From Candidatus Anstonellales archaeon (lineage in GTDB: Archaea; Micrarchaeota; Micrarchaeia; Anstonellales; J096): a stretch of DNA of 64,000 nt. This document shows positions 11,301 to 46,568 of the stretch, in pieces. Within the stretch, counting starts at the first letter, position 1, and each line of letters opens with the position of its first letter. The notes under the pieces are model-generated. The model was not told where the DNA came from, did not search any database, and was given only the letters and a program-made list of their open reading frames with translations. The stretch covers positions 1 through 64,000 of the forward strand of contig JAWAFD010000001.1 of the NCBI GenBank assembly GCA_038890745.1, in the 5' to 3' direction. The translations under genes and the position numbers were made by a program.

Positions 11301-11407
11301 AGCCCCGTCGTCTAGTGGTCAAGGATAGGAGGCTCTGGACCTCTTGACAGCGGTTCGAAGAGCCCTTTTTCCTGGCGGAAAGGGGTTTGGAAATCCGCTC
11401 GGGGCTA
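11301..11407 (+). tRNA. tRNA-Gln(CTG) with 34-nt intron at 59/60 (11360-11393)
   Basis: AGCCCCG/CGGGGCT acceptor; GGAGG-CT-CTG-GA-CCTCT anticodon arm; T-loop TTCGAA|T split by a BHB-forming insert. Confidence 0.9.
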
Positions 11408-11441
11408 TTTTTTAAAAATATTTACGCAAATAAACACTAGT

Positions 11442-12119
11442 ATGGACGCAAAGGAAGTATACAAATTACATATGGGAAATGTAAACTACCGGTTCTTCGG
11501 TTCAGGCATAGCCCACTATTCAAAATTCTTAGGTATAAAGGTAGAAGAGGTTATTAGGGAACGGATGCATAAAAAAGAAAGAGTTAGTATTTTGGATATA
11601 GGAACCGGAAACGGATTGTTCTTGAAAGAAATTGAAGAGAGATTCAAGAAAGTCGATGCTTATGGGATTACATTGAAGATGGATGGAAAACCAAAATCTA
11701 AAAAAATAATCATCTCTAATTGCGGAGAATGTATCCCATTCAAAGAGGGATGTTTTGACTTTGTTTTTTCTGTTATGACAGCTGTGTACATTCCTGACAT
11801 TACGAACTTGCTATTGGAAACAAGGAGGGTTATCAGCAATGATGGAACGGCATACATCCACTTGGGAGGTATATGTGATAGTAGAGTAAAAATTCAAAGC
11901 GGAAGTAATAGCGAGTATGTAAACATTGACCTTTTTCTTAGCATGTGCAATATAGGATGTATTAGAACATTACAGCGTATTGTTTCTACCGTTTACCGGC
12001 AGGACATAACAATATGCATATATAAAAATACAATGATACCGGAGCTTAGACACCTTGAGTCTAAATTTGAGGGTTACGATTGGAGCAACTATTTTATACC
12101 AACCGGTAGATATTTATAA
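11442..12119 (+). CDS. Class I SAM-dependent methyltransferase
   Basis: ILDIGTGNG motif I; PFKEGCFDFVFS. Confidence 0.75.
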   Translation: MDAKEVYKLHMGNVNYRFFGSGIAHYSKFLGIKVEEVIRERMHKKERVSILDIGTGNGLFLKEIEERFKKVDAYGITLKMDGKPKSKKIIISNCGECIPFKEGCFDFVFSVMTAVYIPDITNLLLETRRVISNDGTAYIHLGGICDSRVKIQSGSNSEYVNIDLFLSMCNIGCIRTLQRIVSTVYRQDITICIYKNTMIPELRHLESKFEGYDWSNYFIPTGRYL

Positions 12120-12121
12120 GA

Positions 12122-12688
12122 ATGAGCCCGCAAAAACCATACATGGATTGGAAAAAATTCAAAGAGGAGAAACTTTCTGAATTGAAAAAAGCGAAAGCAA
12201 ACGGCGAAGTGGATAAAGAAATTCTTGATTTGGTGCGCGCGATAAATAAAAAACAGAATTATGTTACAAGTTCAAGCTGCGCTGGAAGGATTCTTCTTTT
12301 GGAGGGAACGGTGAAGGGGTATGCGAAGCATTATGCAAAATGGCACTCTTTACCGGCAAAAAAAGAAATTGAAAATGCCGTGAAAGCATACAGAGGAAAG
12401 AAAATTCTCTGGTTAAGGGTGGAGCCTTTCATTCTGCATGTTTTTGCAAAGGACCTAGATTCTGCAATGGATTTTATGAAGAGAGCGAAAAATGCGGGGG
12501 TGAAGAGGGGTGGAATTCAATATTCGAAAAATTTTTATTTTATTGAAATACAAGGAACGGCTGGATTGAACATGCCTATAAATGTATGCAAATGCGATTT
12601 TGGGAAGGTGTATGGGATAATAAAAAGAATGCTTGTGGAAAATGAGCTCAGGAGAGGAATACTTAAAAAAGAGATGGCAAAAAAATAG
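12122..12688 (+). CDS. taw3: tRNA wyosine-pathway methyltransferase Tyw3/Taw3
   Basis: [16 protein letters not shown] and EPFILHV motifs. Confidence 0.85.
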
Positions 12689-12691
12689 CTT

Positions 12692-14440
12692 ATGCATGAA
12701 ATCCGCTCGCCGATTGTTGCTGTTCTTGGCCATGTTGACCATGGAAAGACCAGCATTCTTGATGCCATAAGGGGTTCAAGGGTTGCCGCAAAGGAAGCGG
12801 GCGGGATTACGCAGATGATAGGTGCAAGCTATGTTTCAAAGCAGGATATTGAAAATCTAAGCAGTGGGCTTGCTGAAAAACTAAAAATAAAGCTTGTCGT
12901 TCCGGGGCTACTTTTCATAGACACACCCGGCCATGAGGCATTCACGAATTTGAGGGATAGGGGAGGAAGCATAGCCGATATTGCAATACTTGTTGTGGAT
13001 GTGAATGAAGGGTTCATGCCCCAAACAATTGAGAGCATAAACATTTTGAAGAGGTACAAAACGCCCTTTGTTATCGCTGCAAACAAGATAGATATTTTGA
13101 GCGGGTGGAACAAGCAGAATACAAAAAGCTTTCTTGAAAGCCTTGGAAAACAGAGAGAAGATGTGAAACTAAAACTTGATGAAAAGATATACTCTATTGT
13201 TGCAAAATTAGGAGGGTATGGGTTTAACAGCGAAAGGTTTGATAGGGTTGGCGATTTTTCTAAGGAGGTTGCAATAATTCCAATATCCGCAAAAACACAT
13301 GAGGGGCTTGCAGAACTTCTTCTTCTCGTTGCAGGCCTGAGCCAAAAGTACCTCGAAAAGGAATTGTACATAAACAGGGATGAACCAGCAAAGGGAAGCA
13401 TAATTGAGGTTAAGGAAGAGAAGGGGATGGGAACAACAATAGATGCAATAATATATGATGGTGTTTTGAAAACTGGCGATGAATTTTACTTTTTAACCAA
13501 TAAGGGAGTGAAGAAAACAAAGATAAGAGCACTGCTATTACCGAATGTACGGGGCGGGGAGAAGTACACGCAGGTTGAAAAGATCGTTGCGGCTGCTGGG
13601 GTGAAAATAATCGCGCCAGAGCTTGATGGCGCCATCCCTGGGTCGCCATTTGCGGTTGTGGGTGCATCAAGCGAGGAGGAGATGAAAAAACAGCTTACTA
13701 GCATTGTTTTTGAAAAATCAGAAGTTGGGGTATATGTTAAGACAGATTCTTTGGGCAGCGCGGAGGCTTTGATAGCATTACTAAAGGAACATAACATACC
13801 GATTGCGAAAGTAAATATTGGTAGTGTAAGCAAGGAAGATGTTTTGTTTTCAAAAAGCATATCTGAGAAAAATAAATACCTTGGTGTGATTTTGGCATTC
13901 AACACAAGAACGCCGAGGGATGTTTTAAGGTTTGCTGAGGATGAAAAGGTAAGGATTATTGAGAACAATATAATATACAGGCTTGTTGAAAATTATGAGA
14001 GCTGGGTTGAGGAAGAGAAAGAGAAGGAGAAACGGGAGATGTTCTTAAAGCTTGGCTACCCTGCAAGAATAAAATTTTTGCCCGGATGCTGCTTCCGGCT
14101 TTCAAAACCTGCTGTTTTTGGGGTTGAGATTTTGGATGGAAAAATAAAACCAGGAGCAAAGATTATGGATAAGGAAGGAAATGTCTTGGGGGAGATAAAA
14201 GGGGTGCAGGAGAAAAAGGAGGTGCTGAATGAAGCGTGTAAGGGAATGCAGGTCGCGATAAGCGTTGATGAAATTGTAGTAAATAAAGACATTTGCGAAG
14301 GGGATATTCTTTACACTTATCTAACACAGGAAGAGATAGAAATGTGGAAGGAGAGGGAAGAGTTGCTTACTGATGATGCAAAATTCGCTTTGGAAGAAAT
14401 AAAAAAAATAATTTTGAAAAAAAGAATAGAAAAGAAATAG
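12692..14440 (+). CDS. infB: Translation initiation factor aIF5B (IF-2)
   Basis: [35 protein letters not shown]. Confidence 0.97.
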
Positions 14441-14441
14441 A

Positions 14442-14651
14442 CTAGGGTTTTTCTATTTCAAAGTTATCGTTGGTTGGGTCTACTGCCGGATCGTCTATTT
14501 GCAAATCAGAGTCACTTATACCCAAATCAATTCCGGTTGTTTTTTCCTCTGTCTCGCTTTTCTCCTTTGTTCCGATTTCTTTCGTGCTCGCTTTTACGCA
14601 ACCTGCAAAGATAAGGAGAAGGGAAATCACAAAAGCGAGAATGAGTTTCAT
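14442..14651 (-). CDS. Small putative lipoprotein
   Basis: Hydrophobic N-terminus with lipobox-like IFAGC; overlaps the stop of the upstream gene. Confidence 0.6.
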   Translation of the reverse strand: MKLILAFVISLLLIFAGCVKASTKEIGTKEKSETEEKTTGIDLGISDSDLQIDDPAVDPTNDNFEIEKP

Positions 14652-15571
14652 TCTTCTTTCCCTCCTTCCTTAACCCCACCTTTTATCTCATCCACTAGCT
14701 CTCTTATTTCATCGCTTGCTTCTAGTATGTATGCTCTTGCTTCCCTAAATTCTTCAGGGGTATAGTACTCATCCTCTCCTATGGTTACTGCTTTCTCAAG
14801 AAGCTCTCTTATTTCACCCACCCTCTCTTCATATCCATCTGTTTTTTCAAGAATTCTGTCCAAGAAGAGCGATAATCTTTCTTTATGGTATTTTGCCCAG
14901 AGGTAGAGATGATGCTCCCAGCGGGTTTTTCTTTCCTCAAGTAGAGCGGTGGTATCCTTATTTTTCAGTATTTTTTCCATATCGTCTGTGTTTTCCTTTG
15001 CTTCATCCAAAATCTTCTCAAGCTTGGTTGTATCATACCCTTTTTCGCGCATATTTTTTGCAACCTCCTCCCCAGCATCTATCCAGTATCTGTTAAGCTT
15101 TATCTCTGCGCTTATCCTGTTCCTTGTCGCTTTTACATGGCAGTTCACAAACTCTTTATGAGCAGAATCAAAATCTTCTTTAATCTGCGCCATTAATTCA
15201 GATTTATTTTCACCTGAGTTTTTGATTGCCTCAATCCTGGCATCGTGTATCGTCTGAACAGCTTCTCGGAAATAACCTTTTGTTTTTGCAACAGCCTCGC
15301 CGAATGCCTCAAGGTTGTTCTCATCCGCTGCCTGCTGGACCTCTTCCATGCTTAACTGAAGGTTGGCTATTATCTCATCATAGCTCTCTCCTGTGTAACC
15401 CTCCGAATACTCAAGCATTGTTACAAGAAAATCAACCCTGCATTCAAGCTGCGCCGCGTGCATCTCCATTACCGCCTGCCTCAGATCCATTCCAAATGTT
15501 TCGTTGCCTTCTGCCGCTACCAAACCAACCGCAGCAAAGAGCAACAAACACATCACAAAAAACTTTTTCAT
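14648..15571 (-). CDS. Secreted helical/coiled-coil hypothetical protein
   Basis: Likely start MKKFFVMCLLLFAAVGLVAA (signal peptide) after GGTGA RBS. The track's longer start runs through the repeat and tRNA. Confidence 0.75.
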   Translation of the reverse strand: MKKFFVMCLLLFAAVGLVAAEGNETFGMDLRQAVMEMHAAQLECRVDFLVTMLEYSEGYTGESYDEIIANLQLSMEEVQQAADENNLEAFGEAVAKTKGYFREAVQTIHDARIEAIKNSGENKSELMAQIKEDFDSAHKEFVNCHVKATRNRISAEIKLNRYWIDAGEEVAKNMREKGYDTTKLEKILDEAKENTDDMEKILKNKDTTALLEERKTRWEHHLYLWAKYHKERLSLFLDRILEKTDGYEERVGEIRELLEKAVTIGEDEYYTPEEFREARAYILEASDEIRELVDEIKGGVKEGGKEE

Positions 15572-15652
15572 ATTCTCACCGGTTTCTGGTTGAATTGAGC
15601 CATTTAAAAAGAAACTTATTTGAAAGCTTTCGAAAGCTTTAGGTCCCTTGTC

Positions 15653-15720
15653 TGCTCCTAATAATATAGGGGGGTAGAAGCGTGAGGGGGTCTGAGAATA
15701 AGTTAAAGTACCCCCTGGTC
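15653..15720 (-). repeat. Dispersed hairpin repeat immediately 3' of tRNA-Gly
   Basis: Minus strand GACCAGGGGGTACTTTAACTTATTCTCAGACCCCCTCACGCTTCTACCCCCCTATATTATTAGGAGCA; its two halves recur at 21307-21342 and ~21470-21507. Confidence 0.85.
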
Positions 15721-15723
15721 TAA

Positions 15724-15939
15724 TGCGGCCGCCGGGATTTCCACCAGACAAACCTCATAGGGGCTTCGCCCCTCGCGGTTTTTCCTTGATTTCCTCCCCC
15801 CTTCCCTCAAAAACATTGTTCAAAATGAGGGGGTTAAGGAGGATACCTAGAACCTAGGGGGAAACTTCCCCCTGGGTTTGGTTTCGGACCCGGGTCTCGA
15901 CCGTGGCAGGGTCGTGTCCTACCACTAGACTACGGCCGC
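15724..15939 (-). tRNA. tRNA-Gly(GCC) with ~145-nt intron at 59/60 (15738-15882)
   Basis: GCGGCCG/CGGCCGC acceptor; CGACC-CT-GCC-AC-GGTCG; T-arm CCGGG-TCCGAA|T-CCCGG. Confidence 0.85.
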
Positions 15940-16017
15940 TTGATTTTTCTTTTTCTCCCAAAACATATAAAAACTTTAAACCTTTAAAATCCAAACCCAA
16001 AAAGGAGTGTGAAAGGT

Positions 16018-16245
16018 ATGAACGAGAATAAAAAAACCGGTTCTCTATTGCCAAAGCCTGTGAATGAAGGTGATGAGCTAGATGTAGAGATTGTGAGCAA
16101 AGGAAAGAAGGACGGAGATGGAATAGCTAAGACAAAAGAAGGTTTTGTAATTATAGTAGAGGGAGGAAACGAAGTAGGAAAAAAGTATCATGTAAAAATA
16201 ACTAGAGTAGGGCTTACTGTTGCTTGGGCTAAAATTACAAACTGA
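16018..16245 (+). CDS. Single TRAM-domain RNA-binding protein
   Basis: PV.EG....V.I...G..GDGIAK..GFVI.V.G...G....VKI.RV pattern. Confidence 0.85.
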   Translation: MNENKKTGSLLPKPVNEGDELDVEIVSKGKKDGDGIAKTKEGFVIIVEGGNEVGKKYHVKITRVGLTVAWAKITN

Positions 16246-17488
16246 GCACCTCACCAAATTTTGGTGCAACAGCCTTTATCCCTTCTTTTTCTTCTATTTC
16301 TTTCGCAAAATTTTCCGGCGCATCCCCATGCACGCAAACAACCAACTCCGGATTAATGCTTCTTATCATTTTGTAAAGGTCCTCCCTTCCAGCATGAGCA
16401 GAGAAATCCAGATACTCAGCAGGTAAACCTACATCTAATTCGTATTCATCCACTTTTATTTTTCCATAATTTAAAAGTCTCCATCCATTCGTCCCCTCAA
16501 CGCTATATCCTGTAAATATTATTTTTGAATTTGGGAGGAGGCTCTTCAGATAGCCAAGGGCGGGACCTCCTTCAAGCATCCCTGCTGTTGCAACTATTAT
16601 TGATGGGTGCTTGGTTGCCTTCCCCCTCTCCCTAGCGCTTGCCACCATGTTCACGCTTTCTATTGATTTTTCAAAACCAGGAAAATCCTTTATGTATCCA
16701 GGATATTTCAGATATACTTTATTTACACTCGTCCCCATCCCATCAACATAAACAGGAATTTCTTTTTCGTATTTTCTTATTATCCTTATAATTTCCTGCG
16801 TCCTTCCAACTGCGAATGCGGGAAGAAGAACGTTTCCCCCATTTTCTATTGTTTCCCATATTTCCTGCATCAGCTGTTTTTCTAGCTCCTTCCTATTCGG
16901 ATGCTCTCTATCATAATAGGTCGATTCAATAATCAAAACATCCGCATCCTCAGGTATCTTCGCCCCTTTGTGAAGCTCTGTTTCCTCTATTTTGAAATCA
17001 CCAGTATAAAGCACGCTTTTTCCTTTGCTTTCTACCCTTAACATCGTAGCACCAGCAAGATGGCCTGCATCCATTATTTTTATTGAAAACTCCCCAACCC
17101 TTAAAATCTGCCCGTGTATTGCTGGTATCCAGTAGTTTTTTGCCTTTTCTATTGAGGTCTTTTTGTAAGGAAAATCATGGCCCTTTAATTTCGCAAGCTT
17201 CAAACTATCATTCCACAAAATTTCTGCAATATCTACTGTTGGTGGTGTTGCATACCACCTTACTTTTCCTTCATCAAACAACCTTGGGAGATAGCCAGAA
17301 TGGTCAAGATGCGCATGTGTTATGAACACCCCATCCGGAATTCTCGGCAGAGGCGCTGGGTATGCCGGCTTCTCCTCTTTTGTGAACACCTTTACCCCAT
17401 AGTCAAATAGAAGGGTTGTTTCCTCTCCTTCAAGAAAGAATGCACTTCTTCCTACTTCTCCTGCAGCTCCCAAAGAATATAATTTCAT
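16235..17488 (-). CDS. Metallo-beta-lactamase/beta-CASP ribonuclease (aCPSF2-like)
   Basis: GAAGEVGRS, THAHLDHSG, AGH, YTGD, ESTY, FSAH, VHGD. Confidence 0.9.
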   Translation of the reverse strand: MKLYSLGAAGEVGRSAFFLEGEETTLLFDYGVKVFTKEEKPAYPAPLPRIPDGVFITHAHLDHSGYLPRLFDEGKVRWYATPPTVDIAEILWNDSLKLAKLKGHDFPYKKTSIEKAKNYWIPAIHGQILRVGEFSIKIMDAGHLAGATMLRVESKGKSVLYTGDFKIEETELHKGAKIPEDADVLIIESTYYDREHPNRKELEKQLMQEIWETIENGGNVLLPAFAVGRTQEIIRIIRKYEKEIPVYVDGMGTSVNKVYLKYPGYIKDFPGFEKSIESVNMVASARERGKATKHPSIIVATAGMLEGGPALGYLKSLLPNSKIIFTGYSVEGTNGWRLLNYGKIKVDEYELDVGLPAEYLDFSAHAGREDLYKMIRSINPELVVCVHGDAPENFAKEIEEKEGIKAVAPKFGEVLSL

Positions 17489-17493
17489 GCTAT

Positions 17494-17928
17494 CTATTTT
17501 TCATTACTGTTTATAATTGTTTGGTGTACCTCGATCCAACCCGTAAATGTAGCTATACCAAAACCAAATAAACATCCTCCTAAATAATAAAATCCTTCAC
17601 ATACGGTTTTCCTCGCATCCCTTGGGTATACAATCCTTACATCCTTTCTCATTCCCCGACTCATGTAATCTTCAAGAAGGGCCGGGTCTTTCATGAGCGC
17701 GAGCCACATCGCTCTTTCCAAATCATCTCCTCTCTTAGTGTAAATAGTGTATGCTTTTTCAACAGTCCTTATTCCTATCTTTCCATCCCCAACCGCATCT
17801 TCTATAAGTATCCTTCGCGCAACAGAATCTTGATTAAGCTGATTTTTTGCAGTAGAAAGTGGTTCTGTTGCGTTAACATGTGTTGCGAACAGTACTGTAG
17901 TTAGTAAAGGACTTAAATGTTTTTTCAT
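17494..17928 (-). CDS. Hypothetical protein (signal peptide, C-terminal hydrophobic segment)
   Basis: 144-aa ORF filling the gap, with a TATA-like element upstream. Confidence 0.55.
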   Translation of the reverse strand: MKKHLSPLLTTVLFATHVNATEPLSTAKNQLNQDSVARRILIEDAVGDGKIGIRTVEKAYTIYTKRGDDLERAMWLALMKDPALLEDYMSRGMRKDVRIVYPRDARKTVCEGFYYLGGCLFGFGIATFTGWIEVHQTIINSNEK

Positions 17929-17988
17929 GTTGTAATTTATGGATTGTTAGTTTTTTAAACCTTTGGGTTGAATTTCTTCTGTGATAGT

Positions 17989-19944
17989 ATGGTTGGGACA
18001 GAGATAGAGGCTCTTCTTAAGGAAAAACGACTTTTCAAACCACCAGAAAAAATTGTTGAGGAAAGCAATGTAAAGAAATGGATGGATAAGTATGGAATAA
18101 AAACTTATGAAGAATTGCTTGAGAAAAGCCAGAATCTGGAATGGTTCTGGGGGGAGGTTGCAAAGGAATTTGTAGAATGGTACGAGGAGCCGAAAAAGAT
18201 TCTCGAATGGGACCCTCCGTATTCAAAATGGTTTGTTGGTGCAAAATACAACATTGTTCATGATGCGCTGGATAAACAGGTTAAACTAAACCCTGACAAA
18301 GTTGCTTATATTTTTGAGGGTGAGCCGGGCGATGTACGCAGAATAACCTACAGGGAACTTTACAGAGAAGTAAACAAACTTGCGAATGCTCTCAAAAAAA
18401 TGGGCGTGAAAAAAGGAGACCGTGTTTCCATCTATCTCCCCATGATCCCTGAACTTCCTATTGCGATGCTTGCGTGCGCAAAAATAGGTGCGGTCCATTC
18501 TGTTGTTTTCTCTGGTTTCAGCTCCGGTGCTCTCAGGGATAGAGTAAACGACTGTGAGGCAAAGGTTCTGATTACATGCGATGGATTTTGGAGGAGAGGA
18601 AAGATTGTTCCCTTAAAGCATCAGGCAGAGGAAACGCTTAAGGAAACGCCAACAGTTGAAAAGGTTATTGTTTACAAGCGCGCAGGGCTTGAGATTCCAT
18701 GGAAAGAGGGCAGGGACGTATGGTGGCATGATATTGTTGAAAATGAAAGCGAGGAATGCGAGACAGAAAAAATGGATGCAAACGACATTCTCTACATCCT
18801 TTATACCTCCGGAACAACAGGAAAACCAAAAGGTGTAATGCACAGGCATGGAGGGTATGCTGTTGGCATCGCTCTTACTCTTCATTGGATATTTGACATA
18901 AAACCTGATGATATATGGTGGTGCACTGCTGATATTGGATGGGTAACAGGCCATAGCTATGTTGTTTATGCTCCTCTTATGCTCGGCGCAACCTCTCTAC
19001 TCTATGAAGGTTCCCCTGATTATCCAGAGCCAGATAGGTTTTGGGCGATTGTAGAGAAACACCGGGTAACTGTTTTCTACACCTCCCCAACAGCAATAAG
19101 AATGTTCATGAAGTTTGGGGAAAGTTGGGTGAAGAAGCACGACCTCTCCTCCCTTCGCCTCCTAGGAACGGTGGGCGAGCCGATAAATCCAGAGGTTTGG
19201 ATATGGTATTATGAACATATCGGAAATGGAAAATGCCCGATTATGGATACATGGTGGCAGACAGAAACAGGAGGATTTTGCATCTCCCCCCTTCCAATCA
19301 CAGACCTGAAACCGGGTTCAGCAGTAAAACCTCTTCCGGGGTTCTCTGCTGCTGTGTTTGATGAAGAAGGAAAACCTACCCAGCCAAATGTAGGTGGAAA
19401 TCTTGTTCTTCTCAAACCATGGCCATCCATGCTTTTAGGCCTTTACAAAAACCCGCAAAAATATCAAGAAACATACTGGTCAAAATACCCAAAAGTTTAT
19501 CTAACCGGTGATGTTGCGAAGGTAGATGAAGATGGGTACTTTTGGATAATGGGAAGAGCAGACGATGTTCTGAAGGTTGCAGGGCATAGATTAAGCAACG
19601 CAGAGCTTGAATCAACCCTTGTCTGCCATCCTGCTGTTGTTGAAGCTGGTGTAGTTGGGAAGCCGCATGAGATAAAAGGGGAAAGCATAGTTGCATTTGT
19701 TGTATTGAAAAAAGGAGTACAGGAATCAGAAGAACTTAGGAATGAGTTAAAGGAATTTGTTGCAAAAGAAATAGGAAAGATAGCAAGGCCTGATGAAATA
19801 TACTTTGTTGATGACCTTCCAAAAACACGCTCAGGAAAAATAATGCGAAGAGTGATAAGAAACAAAATAACCGGCCAGCCTGTTGGAGACCTTTCTACGC
19901 TCATGAACCCAGAGGCAGTTGAGCAGCTTGACAAAGCAAGATGA
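17989..19944 (+). CDS. acs: AMP-forming acetyl-CoA synthetase
   Basis: [46 protein letters not shown]. Confidence 0.95.
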
Positions 19945-20457
19945 CTAAACCTCCTTTCCATCCAAAAATTTTCTAATTTTTATTTTTCCTTCTTTATCAA
20001 TCTCTAAAATAATAAAACTCTCATGCCCTCCCTCGCTGCTTCCACCCCATACCCCGGTTGCGCTTCCTGGATTTACAAACAAGACTCCTTTATACTCTTT
20101 CACTTCCAGGTTGTGCGTATGCCCATGCACTAAAACATCAACATCCATTCCCTTTGCAATCCTGAACAGCTGCTCATAATCCCCTCTTGGGTGAACCTCT
20201 GTTCCATGCACCAAACCTATCCTCACTCCATACGCCTCGACCATCTCCTTTTTCGGAAACTCCGCACTATCCATATTTCCTTTAACGCATTTGACTGGGG
20301 CGATTTGAGATAGAAATTGAATTGGTATCATGGACGTTGTATCCCCGGTACATAGAATAAGGTCTGGTTTTTCCTTTATGATAACCTTTCTTATCCATAT
20401 AGGTATATCCCCTGCCCTTTCTGGGATGTGAAAATCACCTATACATAATATTTTCAT
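19945..20457 (-). CDS. Metallophosphoesterase, YfcE/Vps29-like
   Basis: GDFH, GD, GNMD, HG, HGHTH, NPGS. Confidence 0.9.
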   Translation of the reverse strand: MKILCIGDFHIPERAGDIPIWIRKVIIKEKPDLILCTGDTTSMIPIQFLSQIAPVKCVKGNMDSAEFPKKEMVEAYGVRIGLVHGTEVHPRGDYEQLFRIAKGMDVDVLVHGHTHNLEVKEYKGVLFVNPGSATGVWGGSSEGGHESFIILEIDKEGKIKIRKFLDGKEV

Positions 20458-21119
20458 TCAGCACCGCCCAATATTTTTATAATATTCTTTCTTCCTTTCT
20501 TTATTCTTCTAACCAATCCAAGTGCTTCAAGCTCCCCAACTACTAAGCTTGTTTTGCTCTCCGTCCATCTCAAAATTTCTCTCATCTCTTTCTGCTCCAT
20601 CCTACCCTCATTTTCTTTAAGTATTTTAAGAACCATTCTTCCATCTTCATCAATTTCTTTCTTTTCTACTTTTTCCTCTCCTCCCCCTTCTTCACTCAAC
20701 ACATGACCAATAATAAATACCAAGATGCCAATTATGATAAGTGCCATGTAGCATAAAAACTCGCTTCTTTTTTCCGGCATCTCGAACACATCAATTCCTC
20801 CGGGTTCTGAGACTGTATCAAACTCACTAGGATAGAAAAGGATAAGGTCATATTTTGTGTCTTCGCTGATGACTGCCTCCTCCCTGCAATATAGAGTTAT
20901 TTTTCCATTTTCTATATGATATGCTTGTATCGTATAATTCCCCGGCGGCAGTTCGATAGAATAATTATTGCTCGCAACAAATTTTGCAGAGCCTGGCCCG
21001 TTTATTTCAATAACAACATTTTCCAGGTTTTCAAAATTGTTTGCAGAGTATATCTCTCCATAAAGCGTATATGCTGAAACAACGCAGAATGCAACAATCA
21101 AAAAAACAAATTTTTTCAT
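20454..21119 (-). CDS. Membrane-anchored protein with C-terminal winged-helix domain
   Basis: Signal peptide MKKFVFLIVAF, a TM segment, and C-terminal EGRMEQKEM...KTSLVVGELEALGLVRRIKKGRKNII. Confidence 0.75.
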   Translation of the reverse strand: MKKFVFLIVAFCVVSAYTLYGEIYSANNFENLENVVIEINGPGSAKFVASNNYSIELPPGNYTIQAYHIENGKITLYCREEAVISEDTKYDLILFYPSEFDTVSEPGGIDVFEMPEKRSEFLCYMALIIIGILVFIIGHVLSEEGGGEEKVEKKEIDEDGRMVLKILKENEGRMEQKEMREILRWTESKTSLVVGELEALGLVRRIKKGRKNIIKILGGAE

Positions 21120-21132
21120 CCTCTCTTCCCTA

Positions 21133-21264
21133 TGCAGGGGAAGGGATTTTCGAACCTTTTCCGCTGAAGCGCTTTTTGTCAGCAAAAAGGGCTCTTCGAA
21201 CCCTCGAACCCACTAAGGGACTGGCTCCTGAAGCCAGCGCCTTTGACCACTTGGCGACCCCTGC
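21133..21264 (-). tRNA. tRNA-Leu(CAG) with 48-nt intron at 59/60 (21147-21194)
   Basis: GCAGGGG/CCCCTGC; CTGGC-TT-CAG-GA-GCCAG; long variable arm; TTCG/CGAA BHB helix. Confidence 0.9.
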
Positions 21265-21285
21265 AGCAAAATATTTTTCACGCAA

Positions 21286-21808
21286 CCTTTCAAAAACCTT
21301 TCGAAAGACCAGGGGGTACTTTAACTTTTTCTCAGACCCCCTGATGCGGTGAAACAACCCGAAGGGCTTCGGTGCGACCCAACCCACCTAAACTTCTGGG
21401 TCGCACTTGTTTCGCCGCATCACCTGCCTCTTCCACTAGCCAAGGGGGGACTTAAGCATATTCTTATTCCCCCCTCACGCTTCTACCCCCCTATCTTATT
21501 AGGAGCAAAGGGATTAGAAAAAGATGGGGGGTAGTAGAGTAAGGGGGTCTGCGATAAGCAATAGTACCCCCTAGTCTTCTGCCTCTTCCACTAGCCAAGG
21601 GGGGGCTTAAGCATATTCTTATTCCCCCCTCACGCTTCTACCCCCCTATCTTATTAGGAGCAAAAATTAGGGGGTATTACCCCCTGAGGGAAGAAAGTTT
21701 AGAAATGCGAAAAGGGGCTTTGGGGATGTTATCCCCAAATGAGTTTAAGAATAGCGAAGGGGGGCGAGGCGGAATAAGCGCCAGGGGGGTATTACCCCCC
21801 GGGGCTTA
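21286..21808. repeat. ~520-bp non-coding cluster of GC-rich hairpin repeats (REP/MITE-like)
   Basis: 86-bp direct repeat at 21424-21509 and 21579-21664 (1 mismatch); inverted copy at 21521-21576; AGGGGGTATTACCCCC hairpins at ~21669 and ~21783; homology to 15653-15720. Confidence 0.85.
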
Positions 21809-21813
21809 TTTGG

Positions 21814-23223
21814 TTAGAATTTTTTTCTTACTTTTGGCCCTTCGGGGGTATCAAGAATCTCGTACCCGCTTTCATTCAAAATTTTTCTTATTCTATCAGA
21901 AAGCTCAAATTGTTTTGCTTTTCTTAGCTCCTCCCTTATTGAAAGAACCGCATTCAGAAGTGGCTCTTCAGCCCCTTCACTTCCTTTCTCTTCTATCTCA
22001 ATCCCAAGAATAAAGAATACATCATTATAGAATTGCTTTGCAATCTTCAGCGCAGAATAGTCCATTTCCTTTCCTGCTATGTGTCTATTCACTTCGCTTA
22101 TAAAATCGAAGAAGGAAGCAACTGCCTTTGCGGTGTCGAAATCATTATCCATAGCCTCAAAAAACATGTTTTTTAGTTCATACATTTTCCTTCTGAATTC
22201 CGGATCCGGTCTGTTTGGTTTTTTGCTTTTTTCTGCCTCACTTAGTAGAACGAATCCTTCCTCTATTCTTCTCAGCGCAGCCGAAGCACTTTCAACATGC
22301 TTTTCTGAGTAGTCTATCGGACTGGAGTATTTTGTCATCACGAATAGAAGGCGGATTGCTTGAGGGCTATGCTTCGATAGCGCATCTTTTAGGGTTATAA
22401 AATTTCCTAAACTTTTGCTCATCTTCACTCCATTAACAGTAAGGAAGCCTGTATGAAGCCAGTATTTTACAAACTGAACCTTGAACGCGGCCTCGCTCTG
22501 TGCAATCTCATTCTCATGATGGGGGAATATAAGGTCCTTTGCACCACCATGGATATCGATCGTTCTGTTTTCTGTATACTTCATACTCATTGCAGAGCAT
22601 TCTATATGCCAGCCGGGTCTTCCGTACCCCCATGGGCTATCAAAACCAATGGGCTCTTCCCCTTTTTTTGTTTTTTTCCAAAGCGCAAAATCAACTGGGT
22701 TTTTCTTTGTTGGGTCTGGCTCTATCCGATGCTCTTTTTCTATCTCTTTTATTTTCTGTCCCGAGAGTTTTCCGTATTTCTTGAATTTCGCAACATTAAA
22801 ATAAACGCCTGTTTCAGTCTCGTAAGCATATCCATTCCTTATTATTTTCTTTATTATTTCGATTATTTCAGGGATATGCTCGGAAACTGCAGGGTAGAAA
22901 TCAGCACGGAGGATGTTTAGGGAATCAAAAAGAGAAAGGGCTTCGGAGTGGAAATGTTTAGAAAGCTCAAGAGGGCTTTTGTTTGTTTCCTTCGCACGGT
23001 TTATTATTTTGTCCTCAACATCCGTAATGTTCTGGATATGGAGGACATCGTACCCTTTGTACAGAAGATAGCGTTTGATTACATCAAAAGAAACATAGGT
23101 ACGCGCATGGCCTAGGTGGGTATGGTCATATGGAGTAAGGCCGCACACATACATAACAATCTTTTTACTGTGCGTGGGTGAGAAATCCTCAACTTTTTTT
23201 GTAAGCGTGTTGTATACTCTCAT
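21814..23223 (-). CDS. cysS: Cysteinyl-tRNA synthetase
   Basis: MYVCG, HLGH, GRPGWHIECSAM, FPHHENE, KMSKS. Confidence 0.97.
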   Translation of the reverse strand: MRVYNTLTKKVEDFSPTHSKKIVMYVCGLTPYDHTHLGHARTYVSFDVIKRYLLYKGYDVLHIQNITDVEDKIINRAKETNKSPLELSKHFHSEALSLFDSLNILRADFYPAVSEHIPEIIEIIKKIIRNGYAYETETGVYFNVAKFKKYGKLSGQKIKEIEKEHRIEPDPTKKNPVDFALWKKTKKGEEPIGFDSPWGYGRPGWHIECSAMSMKYTENRTIDIHGGAKDLIFPHHENEIAQSEAAFKVQFVKYWLHTGFLTVNGVKMSKSLGNFITLKDALSKHSPQAIRLLFVMTKYSSPIDYSEKHVESASAALRRIEEGFVLLSEAEKSKKPNRPDPEFRRKMYELKNMFFEAMDNDFDTAKAVASFFDFISEVNRHIAGKEMDYSALKIAKQFYNDVFFILGIEIEEKGSEGAEEPLLNAVLSIREELRKAKQFELSDRIRKILNESGYEILDTPEGPKVRKKF

Positions 23224-28792: not shown

Positions 28793-28883
28793 CTCACCAC
28801 CCCACTTTACCAAAAAATATGCTGGCAGTCTATTTTGTGCGCAAGTATTTTTATAGGTTTTCAGACCGCGACCAGATTTATAG

Positions 28884-29071
28884 TAGCGGGGGGTGGATTT
28901 GAACCACCGACCTCCGGGTCTCCCACCCCTCATTTGTGAGGGATTTTGAAGGCATCCGTGCCCAAACCTCCTAAAAACATTAGGGGGTTGAAGCTAGGGG
29001 GACTGCCTACTACTCTTAGGCTCCCCCTGGCTTATGAGCCCGGCGGGAACTCCAAACTCCCCTACCCCGCT
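28884..29071 (-). tRNA. Initiator tRNA-Met(CAT) with ~113-nt intron at 37/38 (28920-29032)
   Basis: A1-U72 AGCGGGG/CCCCGCT; three G-C pairs in CCGGG-CT-CAT-A|A-CCCGG; CTCA/TGGG central helix. Confidence 0.9.
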
Positions 29072-37928: not shown

Positions 37929-38130
37929 GCCAAGGTAGCTCAGCCTGGTTATGAGCGCCAGACTCATAGGAAATAAACTTATGAGTGATGAGCCTTTTGG
38001 CGATGATATAAAATGGCGTTCTAACTTAGGAACGCTCTTAGAAGAAAATTCTTCTGAGAGATCTGGAGGTCGCGGGTCCAAAGAGCCCTTTTTGCTGGTG
38101 GAAAAGGGTTTGGAAATCCCGCCCTTGGCA
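37929..38130 (+). tRNA. Elongator tRNA-Met(CAT) with two introns (37969-38060 at 37/38; 38083-38116 at 59/60)
   Basis: GCCAAGG/CCTTGGC; CCAGA-CT-CAT-A|A-TCTGG with perfect CTCA/TGAG BHB helix; GCGGG-TCCAAA|T-CCCGC. Confidence 0.88.
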
Positions 38131-38144
38131 ATAATGGTGGTCGT

Positions 38145-39032: not shown

Positions 39033-39065
39033 AAAATGTTTTGAATAAAGCAAATATGTGTAAAA

Positions 39066-39776: not shown

Positions 39777-39791
39777 AAATATGGTGAAAGT

Positions 39792-40235: not shown

Positions 40236-40276
40236 CCACAAAATAACTTTAAAAATCCGTAACCTCAAACTTACTT

Positions 40277-40771: not shown

Positions 40772-40852
40772 CTCTAACTAATCATGTGTAGTTAGTTGAT
40801 TAATAGTTGTAAGCAGTGGTACTTAAAAAACTTATCACACAAAATATATACG

Positions 40853-41797: not shown

Positions 41798-41854
41798 CCA
41801 TATGATACATCGTAGCAGTTCTCGATAGGCAGAGGAGATAAAATGGAAAAATAG

Positions 41855-42886
41855 TTAGAGCCAACTCGACATCCTAGATTGCCCTCCCTTCTCCTCCATC
41901 CCCTTTACCATCTTCTCAATAGCATTCCTCACCCTTTCCTCTGAAAAATCATGTTTTTCAACAAGAATTTCAATTATTTTTTCTGCGTTTGGCTTTCCCC
42001 ATCTTAGCTCAGCATCTATGCATGGGGGGTTCAGGAAATACTCAAAAACTTCTTCTATGTATGGTTCAAATTCATGAGCGTATTTATTTTTAACAAACCT
42101 TAAAACATTCTCAAAAGTTTTCTGCTCCTTTACTATTTTAAGGGCTGTTTTCGGCCCAACCCCCTTAACCCCCTCATTAAAATCTGTTCCAACAAGAATG
42201 CCAATTAAAATAAGCTGCTCCTGCGTTATACCATTCGCTGAGAGAAGTTCGGAAAGGGAGATCTGTTCTGGATAGATGAGCGTATACTGGTCTCTTCTTG
42301 GAAGCTTTCTTTTTCCTGTTATTGAAAGATTGCGAATCAAAAGCGGTGATCCAAACAGGAGGGAATCATAATCCTGCGAAGCAGAGGCATAAACAATTCC
42401 TTTTTTTGCCATGCACGCTGCCTGTGCCTCCCCTTCTTCAGGAGCTTGGATGCAGGGAATACCCATGGCTGAGATGAGCTCCATGCTCTCAGCAATCATC
42501 TCATCTGTAAGTTTTGAGGTTGCTTGGGCATATGTTTTCGCTCCTTCTTCTTCAAGCGCAAGCGCTTTCTCCCATTTTTCTTTTGCCTCCTCCTTTGCCT
42601 TTCTCCTTTTTTCTATTGTTTTTTCCTTAAAAGCAGGTGGCTTGCCATCAAAAACATACACTACCTTTATTCCGTTCTCCATAAGCCTTTCTGTTCTGTA
42701 AAGCAAACCGCTAAGATGAGAAGTGATATTTCCTGAAAAATCCATCAAAGGAGTCCCATCCGGCTGCCTTATAGATGCGAGGAATTGATAAAGAACATTA
42801 TGGGCATCTATTGCAATCTTTTTGCCTGCCAAACTCTCCAATGTTATCTCACGCTTTTCAACAATAGGTGAAAGGTCTACACCCAT
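41855..42886 (-). CDS. fen: Flap endonuclease 1
   Basis: MGV.L, YQFLASIRQPDGTPL, EGEAQAA, SQDYD, GTDFN.G..G.GPK; C-terminal PIP box QSRMSSWL. Confidence 0.97.
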   Translation of the reverse strand: MGVDLSPIVEKREITLESLAGKKIAIDAHNVLYQFLASIRQPDGTPLMDFSGNITSHLSGLLYRTERLMENGIKVVYVFDGKPPAFKEKTIEKRRKAKEEAKEKWEKALALEEEGAKTYAQATSKLTDEMIAESMELISAMGIPCIQAPEEGEAQAACMAKKGIVYASASQDYDSLLFGSPLLIRNLSITGKRKLPRRDQYTLIYPEQISLSELLSANGITQEQLILIGILVGTDFNEGVKGVGPKTALKIVKEQKTFENVLRFVKNKYAHEFEPYIEEVFEYFLNPPCIDAELRWGKPNAEKIIEILVEKHDFSEERVRNAIEKMVKGMEEKGGQSRMSSWL

Positions 42887-42890
42887 TCAA

Positions 42891-43352
42891 TCACTTCTTT
42901 TCTTCAACAAAATCCCCAAGCGTCAGCTCTTCTTTTGTTTTTTTCTCAGGTTTTTCTATTATTACTTCTGTTGTTTTTTCTATAAGCTTTATACCGAGGG
43001 CCCTCTCAAGCTTTTTTGCTGTTTTTATGGTGGGCCTCATCCTCTCCTTTTCTATGTGCTCTAAATAGCTTTCGCTCTCACTTATTTTTCTTGCAAGCTC
43101 CTGCCTGCTAAGTCCAAGCCTTTCCCTTGCTTTTCTTACAATTTCACCATACCCTTCTATAATATCCTCCTCAACAACTCCTGTTTCAACAACCCTAACC
43201 CCTTTCTCTATTTCCTCATCCGGCTTTTTATTTAGAATTTTTGCTCCCTTCGCGCATACTGCACATGCATTCATGATCGCGCCTTCTATCGTGATAATAA
43301 ACCTTGCTTCCCTCTCCCCGCAAACCTCGCACATGTCTTTTTTCTTTTGCAT
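42891..43352 (-). CDS. Archaeal MBF1 (Zn ribbon + HTH)
   Basis: CEVCG...CAVC, HTH region, LTLGD. Confidence 0.9.
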   Translation of the reverse strand: MQKKKDMCEVCGEREARFIITIEGAIMNACAVCAKGAKILNKKPDEEIEKGVRVVETGVVEEDIIEGYGEIVRKARERLGLSRQELARKISESESYLEHIEKERMRPTIKTAKKLERALGIKLIEKTTEVIIEKPEKKTKEELTLGDFVEEKK

Positions 43353-43403
43353 AAAATCTAATTGTCTAGAAAAGCATTTATAATGTTTCGCAGAATTCTA
43401 CCC

Positions 43404-44528
43404 ATGCTCAGAAAGGTTGTTATTCTTCTCGCGATAGCGATATTCTACATCATAATTAATCTCAACATCCCGGGAACAGTGAGGTTCTTTGCTGCTGTTC
43501 TTGAATTGGGGGTAGTTGGGGAGTGGCTAAGGAAGGAATATAAGTTGGACGGCGAGTATGGGCTTTTTCTTCTGAAGAGCAGAAAGGGGATAAACAAAAT
43601 AAATGAGGTTGCGTTGAGGTATGAAAGGATACTAAAAATTTTTGCTGATGTTTCTATCGCCGTTGGCTTTGGCCTTGCCTCTTTCTTTGTTATGAAATGG
43701 AGGCCGGTAAAGGAAAGGGTTGGAATCGTTCTTGCGGGTTTGGGTATAATGATTCTTGTTTCCTTGCTCGTTTCCCCATTCGCGCTCGGGGTGATAATCT
43801 CAACAATCGGAATAAAGGGGGTTGGGGAAACCGTTTCCGGTGAGTTTAATATTATATACCCGGCCATGCTTCTCTTTACGGGTTTTTGCGGGTTCATTTC
43901 TTACTCGTTGGTTGCGCATGGAATCGGGGTTGTTTCTGCAGTCTATGAAATAGTGATGTATGGCATCGAGCAAGAGGTACAGGAAGGGGCAACCCTTCTT
44001 CTTCCGGGTATAAACCTCCCATTTTTAGAAGGGGTTTTTGCTCTCGCTTTAATACTGATCGTTCACGAGGGCGCGCACGCTCTCCTCACAAGAATTGCTC
44101 GGGTTAGATTGCTTAGCTCTGGGATTGTTTTCTTTGGGTTTATACCTGTTGGTGCTTTTGTGGAGCCGGATGAAAACCATCTTCTACAGAAAAGTATTAA
44201 GGAGCAGGAGAGGGTTCTTGCTGTCGGAACGGGTGCAAACTTTCTTGCGAGCATAGTTCTTCTTCTTATTTTCTTGGGTTTTTTTTATGCTACGAAAGGG
44301 TTTTACGAAGAAGGGGCTTTTTTCTACGGGATACTCCAGTTTATGTATAAGTTTTTGGGGCTTGCCTTTGCCCTAAACTTTGTTGTCGCTGTTGTAAATC
44401 TTTTACCCGTTCCTTTTTTTGATGGGTACAGGATGGTTGAGCTTGTTGTGGGGAAGAGAATTGCACAACCTCTGTCTATTCTATTGCTCACCGCGCTTGT
44501 AATAAACTTCCTTCCTGCGCTTTTCTAA
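43404..44528 (+). CDS. Site-2 protease (M50)
   Basis: HEGAH, GAFVEPDE, NLLPVPFFDG. Confidence 0.88.
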   Translation: MLRKVVILLAIAIFYIIINLNIPGTVRFFAAVLELGVVGEWLRKEYKLDGEYGLFLLKSRKGINKINEVALRYERILKIFADVSIAVGFGLASFFVMKWRPVKERVGIVLAGLGIMILVSLLVSPFALGVIISTIGIKGVGETVSGEFNIIYPAMLLFTGFCGFISYSLVAHGIGVVSAVYEIVMYGIEQEVQEGATLLLPGINLPFLEGVFALALILIVHEGAHALLTRIARVRLLSSGIVFFGFIPVGAFVEPDENHLLQKSIKEQERVLAVGTGANFLASIVLLLIFLGFFYATKGFYEEGAFFYGILQFMYKFLGLAFALNFVVAVVNLLPVPFFDGYRMVELVVGKRIAQPLSILLLTALVINFLPALF

Positions 44529-44568
44529 ACATAAAGTTTAAAAACATTTTTGAACATATATTAACACT

Positions 44569-45597
44569 ATGATGGAAGCAGAAAGATATGGGGATAATAA
44601 GGTGAAGGAAGCTTTTTTGCTAGTGTATAATGATGTAATAGAGACAGTAAAAAATCCAATAAAAAACCCCATAGCGAAAGCTTTAGAGGCGGTTGTCTCA
44701 ATCGCAACGTTTCCACTAATCCTTGCTGGGTTGTATGCGCCAAAGCAGAATGGCCACGTTGGCAAAGTCGGTGAAAATGAAGAAAGCGAGGAAGAGATCG
44801 ATTTCTATGAATGGAAAAAAAGACAACGAGAAGCAGAAGAAAGAAACGCTAATTTTGAGAGGGCTAGGATAACAGTAAATGGAATAACTTACACAAGAGA
44901 AAAAAGGGAGGGTGAAACACGAGAAGAATGCTACATAAAATTAATAATGGAAATTATGAATTCATGGTGCGATGATCTTGTTGAAAGTGAAAGGATGATA
45001 AATTTTTTCAGTGGAAAAATGCCCATCCCAAGGATTCTTGACCCAAACGGGGAGGGAAACGATTCGTTCATCCTAAAAAACAGTTCTATTATCACAGCCC
45101 TTCTGCTCATGGATAACCATGAGATTGATGAGGAGCTTAAAGAATATATTACTACTTCTGTAGAGAGAATGAGCTCCCGTACTTCTATGTATATACTATT
45201 TCGAGACAAGGAACGAGTGGATAGGGGAATAAAAACAATCCTTGAAATTTTAAAAGAACTTACAGACCGAGGGGATGTGAGAAGAGTATTAGAAACTATA
45301 GAAGGATTCGAAGGATTCATGGGGGATAACATTGAGGGTGGGTTAATAATTCAAATATTTAGTAGGGCCTTCTCAGCAAAAGGAAATGATGTGGAAAAGG
45401 AGATGAAGTATAAAGAATTGCTTGAACGACTTAGCAGAAAAAAGACAACGGCACTAAAGATTTTAGAAAGCGAAGGAGAGGGGATGAGAAAGGATTATAG
45501 AGAAGTGCTCAAGAAACTTGAGTGGACTCTTTTTAGGTTTGGTGGAGTAAACTACGAAAGGAACATTATGGTTCCAACCAAAAAAAGAGCATCATAG
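44569..45597 (+). CDS. Hypothetical protein
   Basis: 342-aa ORF with one hydrophobic segment; no recognised motif. Confidence 0.6.
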
Positions 45598-46344
45598 ATG
45601 GCATACCCAGCCGCCATCTATCACAAGAACAGTTCCTGTAACATACGAAGCCTCATCGCTCGCCAGGTAAAGGGCTCCGTACGCAATATCCTCTGGTTTT
45701 CCAACCCTTTTTATTAAAACTGGGGCGAGGTATGCTTCAAGAAGTTCTTTGTTTGCAATAATGTCCTTTGTCATGGCTGTTTCTATCAAACCAGGAGCGA
45801 TCGCATTTACCCTAATGCCAAACGAAGCAAGCTCCTGCGCAGCTGATTTTGTGAAATTCACTATCGCTCCTTTTGAGGCTCCATAATGGGTTGCACCCCC
45901 TATCCCACGAATGCCGGCTACGCTCGCAATGTTTATTATCGCTCCTTTCTTCTGCTTTTTCATCTGGATGGATGCGTACTTTGTTCCGAAGAAAACACCA
46001 TTCAGATTTACTGCCATGAGTCTGTTCCAGTCCTGCTCTGTAATTTCATCAATGTTTTTTGGAAAATAAATCCCTGCATTGTTCACCATAATATCAAGCT
46101 TTCCGAATTTCTTTACTGTTTTCTCAACCAAACTCTTAACCTCATTCTCTTTTGAAACATCGCATGGAAGGGCAAAAGTTTGACCGAATTTTGAGAGCTC
46201 TTCGGCAACGCTCTTTGTATGTTCCTCATTTTCAGAACTTATCACAACCTTCGCACCTGCTTTAAGGAAAACTGTTGCGATCCCTTTTCCAATCCCAGAG
46301 GTTGAGCCGGTAACAATAGCAACCTTATCCTTTAGGGAAAACAT
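45592..46344 (-). CDS. Short-chain dehydrogenase/reductase (FabG-like)
   Basis: [21 protein letters not shown]. Confidence 0.92.
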
Positions 46345-46387
46345 AGAACCACAAAAAGGATAGAAAGGAATATTTTATAAAATTAAT

Positions 46388-46568
46388 TGCAGGGGGAGGG
46401 ATTCCCGAGCCTTTTCCGCTGAAGCGCTTTTTGTCAGCAAAAATGGCTGTTCGAACCCACGTAGACCCTAGGTCACCAGGTTTCGCATGCAGGTTTGTTT
46501 GCAACCTTTTTGGACAACCCAAAAGGTTTCCTTGAGCCTGGCGCGTTTGACCGCTCCGCCACCCCTGC
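46388..46568 (-). tRNA. tRNA-Leu(CAA) with two introns (46482-46530 at 37/38; 46402-46449 at 59/60)
   Basis: GCAGGGG/CCCCTGC; CCAGG-CT-CAA-G|A-CCTGG; long variable arm; TTCGAA|T. Confidence 0.88.

Follow-up and report, generated by a model that had tools for sequence, protein, structure and literature searches.

Do closely similar introns in unrelated tRNA genes of a single genome reflect recent copying? This question is raised by the first 64,000 nucleotides of contig JAWAFD010000001.1 (assembly GCA_038890745.1, forward strand), hereafter the window, from a Candidatus Anstonellales archaeon (Micrarchaeota), in which a tRNA-Gln gene, a tRNA gene with a CAT anticodon and two tRNA-Leu genes each carry a short intron in the T-loop. 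A previous reading of the window, made from its letters (the sequence-only reading), had attributed the four introns to one family inserted between tRNA nucleotides 59 and 60 (59/60) and had proposed their recent transposition or homing. Our analysis indicates that they belong to one homologous family of bulge-helix-bulge (BHB) introns that has probably been copied repeatedly between tRNA genes since three congeneric species diverged, mostly by replacement of one variant by another at 59/60 sites that were already occupied. The family, its BHB motif, the genes of the splicing enzymes, the decoupling of the introns from their loci and the differences in presence or absence between species were all computed here. 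The genomes concerned are that of the window (G000), those of two congeners (G001 and G002) and that of a member of another GTDB family of the same order (G021).

Four related introns in the window

All four introns were located, at the coordinates below (R1 is the covariance model of the family):

11301-11407 (+): tRNA-Gln(CTG) gene, exons 11301-11359 and 11394-11407, accepted by ARAGORN once 11360-11393 is removed
11360-11393 (+): short-form family intron, 34 nt, at 59/60 of Gln(CTG), R1 57.2 bits
21133-21264 (-): tRNA-Leu(CAG) gene, accepted by ARAGORN after intron removal, Rfam tRNA model 42.8 bits across the insert
21147-21194 (-): long-form family intron, 48 nt, at 59/60 of Leu(CAG), R1 80.2 bits
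37929-38130 (+): CAT-anticodon tRNA gene with two introns, recognized by eye (acceptor GCCAAGG/CCTTGGC, anticodon loop CTCATA), flanks aligning to the tRNA locus of a sister species
38083-38116 (+): short-form family intron, 34 nt, at 59/60 of the CAT tRNA, R1 64.3 bits
46388-46568 (-): tRNA-Leu(CAA) gene with two introns, recognized by eye
46402-46449 (-): long-form family intron, 48 nt, at 59/60 of Leu(CAA), R1 72.8 bits

The introns of Gln(CTG) and of the CAT tRNA differ by 3 mismatches out of 34 nt (blastn identity 91.2%, E 1.2e-6 against the 0.99-Mb genome) and those of Leu(CAG) and Leu(CAA) by 5 differences out of 48 (identity 0.90; blastn core 38/39, E 3.2e-14), the same counts as in the sequence-only reading. 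Its description of the Leu introns as the short sequence with a central expansion is also borne out by alignments, in which the long form corresponds to the short form plus a central block. The gene that it had labelled Met does have a CAT anticodon. Since the window contains a second, initiator-like CAT tRNA at 28883-29071, the gene at 37929-38130 would encode either elongator Met or Ile2.

These genes are easily missed by standard tools. With default settings, ARAGORN detects one tRNA only in the window, with its end misplaced inside the intron. At the gathering score, Rfam finds no tRNA in the window, and with laxer filters its tRNA model spans Leu(CAG) across the insert. Rfam tRNA matches (E<=0.001) number 22 in G000, the three species of the genus having 22, 14 and 24 and sister genera 43-44.

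Extent of the family in the genome

The window's genome (five contigs, 989,524 bp, approximately 41% G+C, 93.8% complete), DNA of which is found in hot-spring metagenome runs, was surveyed by removing candidate T-loop inserts in silico and submitting the result to ARAGORN; R1 was built from the introns found. This procedure replaced a brute-force scan for acceptor and T-arms, whose 761 candidates were mostly false. The CAT tRNA and Leu(CAA), absent from the output of the removal scan, were identified by eye. ARAGORN often mislabelled genes with several introns, and synteny or visual inspection gave the identities used here: 'Ser_TGA' became Ile(TAT), 'Ser_CGA' of G001 the CAT tRNA and 'Leu_x' Leu(TAA). 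Likewise, a Phe(AAA) call obtained after insert removal was implausible, and the gene is Leu(TAA) by synteny.

Fifteen tRNA genes of this genome carry a family intron at 59/60, namely Gln (CTG and TTG), the CAT tRNA, Arg(TCG), Pro (TGG and CGG), Leu (CAG, CAA and TAA), Asp, Lys(CTT), Phe, Gly(TCC), Ala(TGC) and Ile(TAT). R1 gives 17 matches, all of them inside tRNA genes: the 59/60 site accounts for 15, and 37/38 for the other two, in Glu(TTC) and in a tRNA near C2:45,4xx. In addition, nhmmer retrieves 12 matches with E<=2.7e-4 as well as the Glu 37/38 intron at E 0.0094. The single family across unrelated isoacceptors that the sequence-only reading had recognized was thus understated, as it extends to 15 tRNAs at 59/60 and to at least two at 37/38. 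That reading had also suggested a search for copies outside tRNA genes: R1 finds none in G000, and there is one in the 16S rRNA gene of G002 (see below). A further weak match lies in the anticodon loop of a window gene:

46482-46530 (-): 49-nt intron at 37/38 of Leu(CAA), possible weak family member (R1 match 46476-46541, 16.2 bits, E 0.038)

The family introns are 29-55 nt long, with one tandem dimer of 90 nt. The short forms (5 of the 15 in G000) consist of a single hairpin and the long forms have an extra internal arm.

Other kinds of mobile introns or elements were considered. A homing intron with its own endonuclease is ruled out, 29-55 nt (90 nt for the dimer) being too small to encode a protein. 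Group I and group II self-splicing introns have no Rfam match in the window, either at the gathering score or at E<=0.05, and are excluded by size. As for a miniature inverted-repeat transposable element or an insertion sequence, whose copies would stand free between genes with target-site duplications, all 17 R1 matches lie in tRNA genes and nhmmer gives no other match below E 0.08; transposases were not searched.

A predicted splice motif half supplied by the T-loop

The T-arm and intron of the 15 genes of G000 could all be aligned, and one hand-drawn structure was scored on this alignment. It comprises the T-stem, a 4-bp helix between U54-R57 of the T-loop and positions N-5 to N-2 of the intron, and a 9-bp helix between the two intron arms, with two bulges of 3 nt (A58 A59|G1 and A A|U60). 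Standard pairs occupy 98.1% of 262 cells, a value reached by none of 500 column shuffles, and slid registers give at most 76.5%. Exon position 57 faces intron position N-5 as A-U in seven genes, G-C in five and G-U in two, a compensatory change across exon and intron. Furthermore, minimum free energy folds recover the T-stem and the inner helix for all 15 introns. The cut is placed at 59/60, as in the sequence-only reading, because this is the only register that gives a 3-4-3 BHB. The motif is a strict hBHBh', with two 3-nt bulges separated by 4 bp at the exon-intron junctions, and removal of the intron restores a canonical cloverleaf (15 tRNAs of G000 accepted by ARAGORN).

In the precursor tRNA, the T-stem would form and U54-U55-C56-R57 of the T-loop would pair with N-5 to N-2 of the intron. 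The 5' arm of the intron (AGCCCUUUU) would pair with its 3' arm (AAAAGGGUU), leaving the two 3-nt bulges, within which the epsilon2 endonuclease would cut before RtcB ligates the exons. Because the near-invariant T-loop supplies half of the recognition motif, the same intron should be spliceable from any tRNA. The exon half of the motif consists of the nucleotides best conserved among tRNAs, which would also account for one family occupying 59/60 of 15 different tRNAs.

The host has the enzymes that such splicing requires, an endonuclease able to cut non-canonical positions and the RtcB ligase. It is a metagenome-assembled genome (MAG) of Micrarchaeota (DPANN) and not of Thermoproteales, and its tRNA-splicing endonuclease EndA is not of the (alpha-beta)2 type: this 375-aa open reading frame (ORF) matches over its full length the epsilon2 EndA of ARMAN-2 (PDB 4fz2, E 2.2e-88). 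RtcB is encoded as well (E 5e-175). The closest named records with the EndA of G000 are two Candidatus Micrarchaeales / Micrarchaeota MAGs (87% protein identity). G000 also encodes a second, smaller EndA-like ORF of 147 aa (C1:152186-152629, +) with tRNA_int_endo N- and C-terminal domains (E 1.3e-9), and an archaeal signal recognition particle RNA is present (Rfam).

Introns do not follow the tRNA gene

The 16S rRNA genes of the two congeners are 97.1-97.6% identical to that of G000 and the DNA flanking their tRNA loci 72-85%; R1 gives 21 matches in G001 and 19 in G002. From the three genomes, 49 introns were extracted and their orthology was set by synteny and by eye. Distance tests were run on 45 of them, two pseudo-fragments, one intron with a nested insert and one tandem dimer being left out.

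The 59/60 site is often occupied in the same tRNAs of all three species and is therefore older than the genus. The sequence of the occupant, in contrast, is decoupled from the locus. The comparison of introns with exons across sister genomes that the sequence-only reading had called for gives, in 15 orthologous pairs of single-intron genes, exons 96-100% identical (mean 0.99) and introns 52-94% identical (mean 0.71). In 6 of 46 comparisons the closest intron in the other genome is that of the orthologue, 3.1 such cases being expected at random. Mean identity is 0.690 for orthologous versus 0.677 for non-orthologous pairs between genomes, a value as high being obtained in 1403 of 5000 permutations. 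Identities of 90% or more are found for 26 of 324 pairs from different tRNAs of the same genome and for one of 23 pairs of orthologues. Moreover, on a maximum-likelihood (ML) tree the genome label requires 15 changes versus 21.3 after shuffling (1 of 500 shuffles as low) and the orthologue label 24 versus 24.9 (175 of 500 as low). Judged from these comparisons, the introns appear to group by genome rather than by tRNA. As to the introns of the window, the orthologue of Gln(CTG) in G002 carries a 50-nt long form (identity 0.60), that of the CAT tRNA in G001 a 49-nt variant of another subfamily (identity 0.55), and that of Leu(CAA) in G002 a nested G/C-rich repeat flanked by family ends.

Some copies in different tRNAs of G000 are identical, such as the introns of the CAT tRNA and of Arg(TCG) (G000:C1:154433-154466; 34/34 nt, blastn) and those of Gly(TCC) and Leu(TAA) (51/51 nt). 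Furthermore, occupancy of several sites differs between the species. The 59/60 sites of Arg(GCG) and Glu(TTC), empty in G000, contain in G001 a 90-nt tandem dimer and a 34-nt intron, respectively, and the T-loop of Arg(CCT), empty in G000, contains a 52-nt intron in G002. As far as sequences can tell, these data suggest that the family is still being copied between tRNA genes.

The introns could instead be old and vertically inherited, without recent copying, and be alike only through BHB pairing with the conserved T-loop and the need for an A/U-rich helix. The occupation of 59/60 in the same tRNAs of three congeners would fit this explanation, as would intron ends fixed by pairing with U54-R57 and a baseline identity of about 0.68 between any two family members. 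However, it does not predict identical 34-nt and 51-nt copies in non-orthologous tRNAs when flanks are only 72-85% identical between species, nor orthologues no more alike than random pairs, nor sites that are filled in one species and empty in another. In addition, unpaired loop positions are shared between the introns, and in sister genera within the same GTDB family Rfam gives 43-44 ordinary tRNA matches and R1 no strong one. We consider this explanation highly improbable. The sequence-only reading had held that the same introns fixed at the same loci in distant relatives would point to an old conserved function; half of this pattern is found, since sister species have an intron at 59/60 of the same tRNAs and the family extends across the order, but the intron sequences do not follow the locus.

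Probable entry into new sites and possible copying mechanisms

The family is not restricted to the T-loop. It occurs at both 59/60 and 37/38 in G000, G001, G002 and G021, and in G001 one and the same dimer, its halves joined by the linker CAAAC, is found in Arg(GCG) at 59/60 as well as in Glu(TTC) at 37/38. Moreover, the 16S rRNA gene of G002 contains a 45-nt family insert that is absent from G000 and G001 and that matches, at 93% identity, the intron in the T-loop of Pro(CGG) of G000. The last nucleotides of this insert differ from the intron in a manner that allows pairing with the 16S exon at that place.

Archaeal rRNA genes, in Thermoproteales, are known to contain small BHB introns without an ORF, work on which figures in the reference list of PMC8784108. 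The G002 insert resembles them: it is 45 nt long, has no ORF, lies within a conserved helix of 16S and is found in only one of the three congeners. What sets it apart is its 93% identity to the T-loop intron of a tRNA in a sister species; no description of an rRNA insert nearly identical to a tRNA intron was found in the literature searched. Other inserts occur in the 16S genes of the genus. The gene of G000 (C3:13670-16436) has four that are absent from both congeners, two nearly identical ones of 45 nt at different sites and two longer ones of 370 and 796 nt, and the gene of G001 has its own 48-nt insert near the 3' end.

Of the recent transposition or homing that had been proposed, recent copying is supported by the identical non-orthologous copies, the decoupling from the locus, the presence/absence differences and the 37/38 and 16S copies. 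Strict homing is excluded by intron size, and much of the apparent spread would be replacement at an old site. Sequence comparison does not distinguish transposition, homing and gene conversion. As to the direction of the changes and the copying mechanism, we infer that in most events one variant would replace another at an occupied 59/60 site, with occasional entry of a copy into an empty 59/60 site, into 37/38 or into the 16S rRNA gene. Among the possible mechanisms, copying at the DNA level seems the most likely: the intron and the T-loop common to tRNA genes would seed ectopic recombination or gene conversion, and tandem duplication would add to it; within the overall interpretation, the chances of this part being right or wrong are roughly balanced. 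Replacement at occupied sites would be easily explained in this manner, because tRNA genes share both the intron and the T-loop and could recombine ectopically.

Alternatively, mobility could be RNA-mediated: excised introns, probably circularised by RtcB, would be reverse-spliced into any BHB-competent RNA and then fixed through reverse transcription and recombination. Copies at sites without flanking DNA homology (37/38 of several tRNAs and the 16S rRNA gene) are consistent with such a route, and every copy found is in a transcribed RNA gene (17/17 in G000). Identity between paralogues also ends at the splice sites, the exons of the CAT tRNA and of Arg(TCG) differing right up to the junction, but conversion tracts in the DNA would be cut back to the intron just as well if changes in the exons were selected against. 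Furthermore, the tandem dimers have a 5-nt linker and not a clean 3'-to-5' circle junction. The reverse transcriptase domain RVT_1 has no match in G000, which is 93.8% complete; this makes an RNA route less likely. On balance, RNA-mediated mobility seems unlikely to be the explanation.

Age of the family and points against recent copying

Across the order, 27 of 151 genomes, G000 included, have an R1 match at E<=1e-6. Ten or more strong matches are found in four genomes only: 15 in G000, 18 in G001, 14 in G002 and 10 in G021. More distant genomes have single copies in assorted tRNAs, e.g. Thr(TGT), Ala (GGC, TGC and CGC), Gly(TCC) and Pro(GGG). No strong match (R1, E<=1e-6) is present in the other genera of the GTDB family to which G000 belongs, which have the same enzyme type (EndA 41-45% identical). 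This distribution of sequence matches points to an old family that many lineages would have kept in small numbers and that would have multiplied in bursts in a few of them.

Several points weigh against the repeated recent copying proposed here. Introns of G021 reach 0.83 identity to those of the genus (shuffled maximum 0.67), when the EndA of G021 is only 48% identical to that of G000. In addition, 11 of 643 non-orthologous pairs between genomes of the genus are at least 90% identical. Such high identity across species and GTDB families implies that purifying selection on the intron or transfer between lineages also contributes. The clustering by genome is itself modest: the within-genome mean identity (0.696) barely exceeds the cross-genome value (0.677) and was reached in 100 of 5000 permutations, which used isoacceptor labels from before the synteny correction. 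The ML tree is built on 50 columns, with most forks unresolved, and the near-copies that define the family also drive its clustering by genome. Gene conversion alone does not account for insertion without flanking homology, as in the 16S gene and at 37/38, and splicing of the family introns is predicted from their folding. Lastly, neither an intron-less allele nor a different occupant was seen at positions 9000-22000 of the window in contigs of four metagenome runs, contigs that break at the intron repeats and show cross-mapping from paralogous copies. One contig, from a strain approximately 98% identical, spans the Leu(CAG) gene with its intron.

Purifying selection could also be the main explanation, if the internal module (AAAAGCGCUUCAGCGG, or variants with a UUCA-containing hairpin) had a function of its own, as a protein-binding site or a stable circular RNA, that kept the copies alike. 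Non-orthologous copies in different genomes reach 0.92-0.94 identity, loop motifs (for example GGGTTGCC and CTTCACC) recur in another GTDB family, at 0.83 identity, and single copies persist, the family being present in 27 of the 151 genomes. However, short forms devoid of the module are common (5 of 15 in G000) and would be spliceable by the same fold, there is no Rfam family match, and selection leaves unexplained why variants occupy different tRNAs in each species. Hence, a functional module is quite improbable as the explanation for this similarity.

A bolder version of the copying hypothesis is that the family is an active non-autonomous mobile element whose niche is the BHB. Such a cassette would enter any RNA gene that provides the exon half of the motif, whether T-loop, anticodon loop or 16S rRNA, by a route so far unknown among protein-spliced introns, would move between Micrarchaeales lineages in bursts, and would require its internal T-arm-like hairpin for mobility. 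Strong matches number 14-18 per genome in the genus versus 0-2 in most of the order. We regard this version as possible but doubtful.

Other tRNA genes and inserts

Besides the family introns, larger inserts of 131-169 nt belonging to other families interrupt 59/60 of eight more tRNA genes of G000, in which at least 23 tRNA genes are interrupted at this site. At five of these eight loci, the sister-species orthologues bear small-family introns at the same 59/60 site. The window contains one of these genes, along with other interrupted tRNA genes:

15724-15939 (-): tRNA-Gly(GCC) gene with a 145-nt insert at 59/60 (15738-15882), from a different, larger family
9271-9474 (+): tRNA-Cys(GCA) gene, 133-nt intron at 37/38
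28883-29071 (-): initiator-like CAT tRNA gene with an A1-U72 end, 113-nt intron at 37/38
37969-38060 (+), approximate ends: intron of about 92 nt at 37/38 of the CAT tRNA at 37929-38130, outside the family, found by eye, without R1 or nhmmer match

In a sister species, the orthologue of Gly(GCC), whose locus aligns to window positions 15883-16193, has a 49-nt small-family intron at 59/60. The 145-nt insert of the window (ACCAAACCCAGGGGG...GGTGGAAA) is rich in G5/C5 repeats. The 37/38 introns of Cys(GCA) and of the initiator-like CAT tRNA also consist largely of G/C-rich repeats that are seen in the large 59/60 inserts, and a block of the Cys(GCA) intron (GGGACGGCGGTTGGGCACCTAACC...GTGCCCTTATGA) recurs upstream in tRNA-Leu(TAA) at G000:C2:about 249,1xx. 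Next to the Cys(GCA) gene, about 1.2 kb (window 9482-10675) is skipped, with 6 other letters between, in a contig of an approximately 98%-identical strain from one metagenome run. Two motifs resembling a C box, GTGATGA and GATGATA, and a CTGA at its end make the 37969-38060 intron a candidate intron-borne C/D-box guide RNA, of non-canonical arrangement and without Rfam match.

Elsewhere in G000, the Pro(GGG) gene (G000:C1:about 258,480-258,590, -) has an insert of about 20 nt at approximately 53/54 and not at 59/60, and in its G001 orthologue a family intron of 42 nt occupies 59/60; for ARMAN-2, Pro(GGG) is reported with introns at both positions, approximately 53/54 and 59/60 (PMC3239211). 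Weaker partial tRNA matches follow Ala(CGC) (G000:C1:179490-179794), as tandem tRNA 3'-half fragments. Similar tandem fragments lie downstream of an intact Arg(GCG) in G002 (G002:C9:10980-11750), two of them bearing the family intron.

Relation to known intron families and significance

Related intron families common to different tRNA genes have been described in Thermoproteales as the result of 'large-scale tRNA intron transposition' (Fujishima et al. 2010, as summarized in PMC4033280, PMC3239211 and preprint 10.64898/2026.10.13.758758). In that preprint, such a family is recognized by introns that share 80% identity or more between at least two tRNA types of the same genome, and such introns are found here. 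According to the same source, a 2026 census used Thermoproteales as a positive control and found almost no such families in Asgard archaea. Like those of Thermoproteales, as described in these sources, the introns studied here are near-identical BHB introns in unrelated tRNAs of one genome, occupy several nucleotide positions and coexist with an endonuclease of broad specificity. They differ from them in belonging to Micrarchaeota (DPANN), in the epsilon2 rather than (alpha-beta)2 EndA of the host, and in their strong concentration at 59/60. Relative to what these sources describe, features proper to the present case are the turnover documented among three congeners and the copy in one 16S rRNA gene. 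On sequence grounds, this would appear to be the same phenomenon as in Thermoproteales, now in another phylum with another endonuclease.

Closer to the host, ARMAN-2 (Candidatus Micrarchaeum acidiphilum) has 56% of its tRNA genes disrupted, 59/60 introns among them, and a 59/60 substrate is cleaved in vitro (PMC3239211). The two archaea share the epsilon2 type of EndA and introns at 59/60. However, the 59/60 example of ARMAN-2 in that text is a 13-nt relaxed hBH, whereas those described here are 32-51-nt strict hBHBh' introns, and the available account in PMC3239211 mentions no shared intron family and describes no copying. In our full-text literature search, which covered main texts, intron families were found described neither for Micrarchaeota nor for DPANN at large.

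The gain of protein-spliced (BHB) introns is an open question, and the only well-described families shared between tRNAs are those of Thermoproteales. The genus studied here would provide a second, independent case with a different endonuclease. It offers favourable material, with three species that have identical exons but different occupants, empty and filled versions of the same sites, one tandem dimer found in both T-loop and anticodon-loop positions, and an rRNA gene that carries a copy. One practical consequence is that standard tRNA finders overlook about half of the tRNA genes in genomes of this genus. Moreover, these introns suggest a simple rule for the 59/60 hot spot: as the invariant T-loop would give half of the splice motif, one intron would fit every tRNA.

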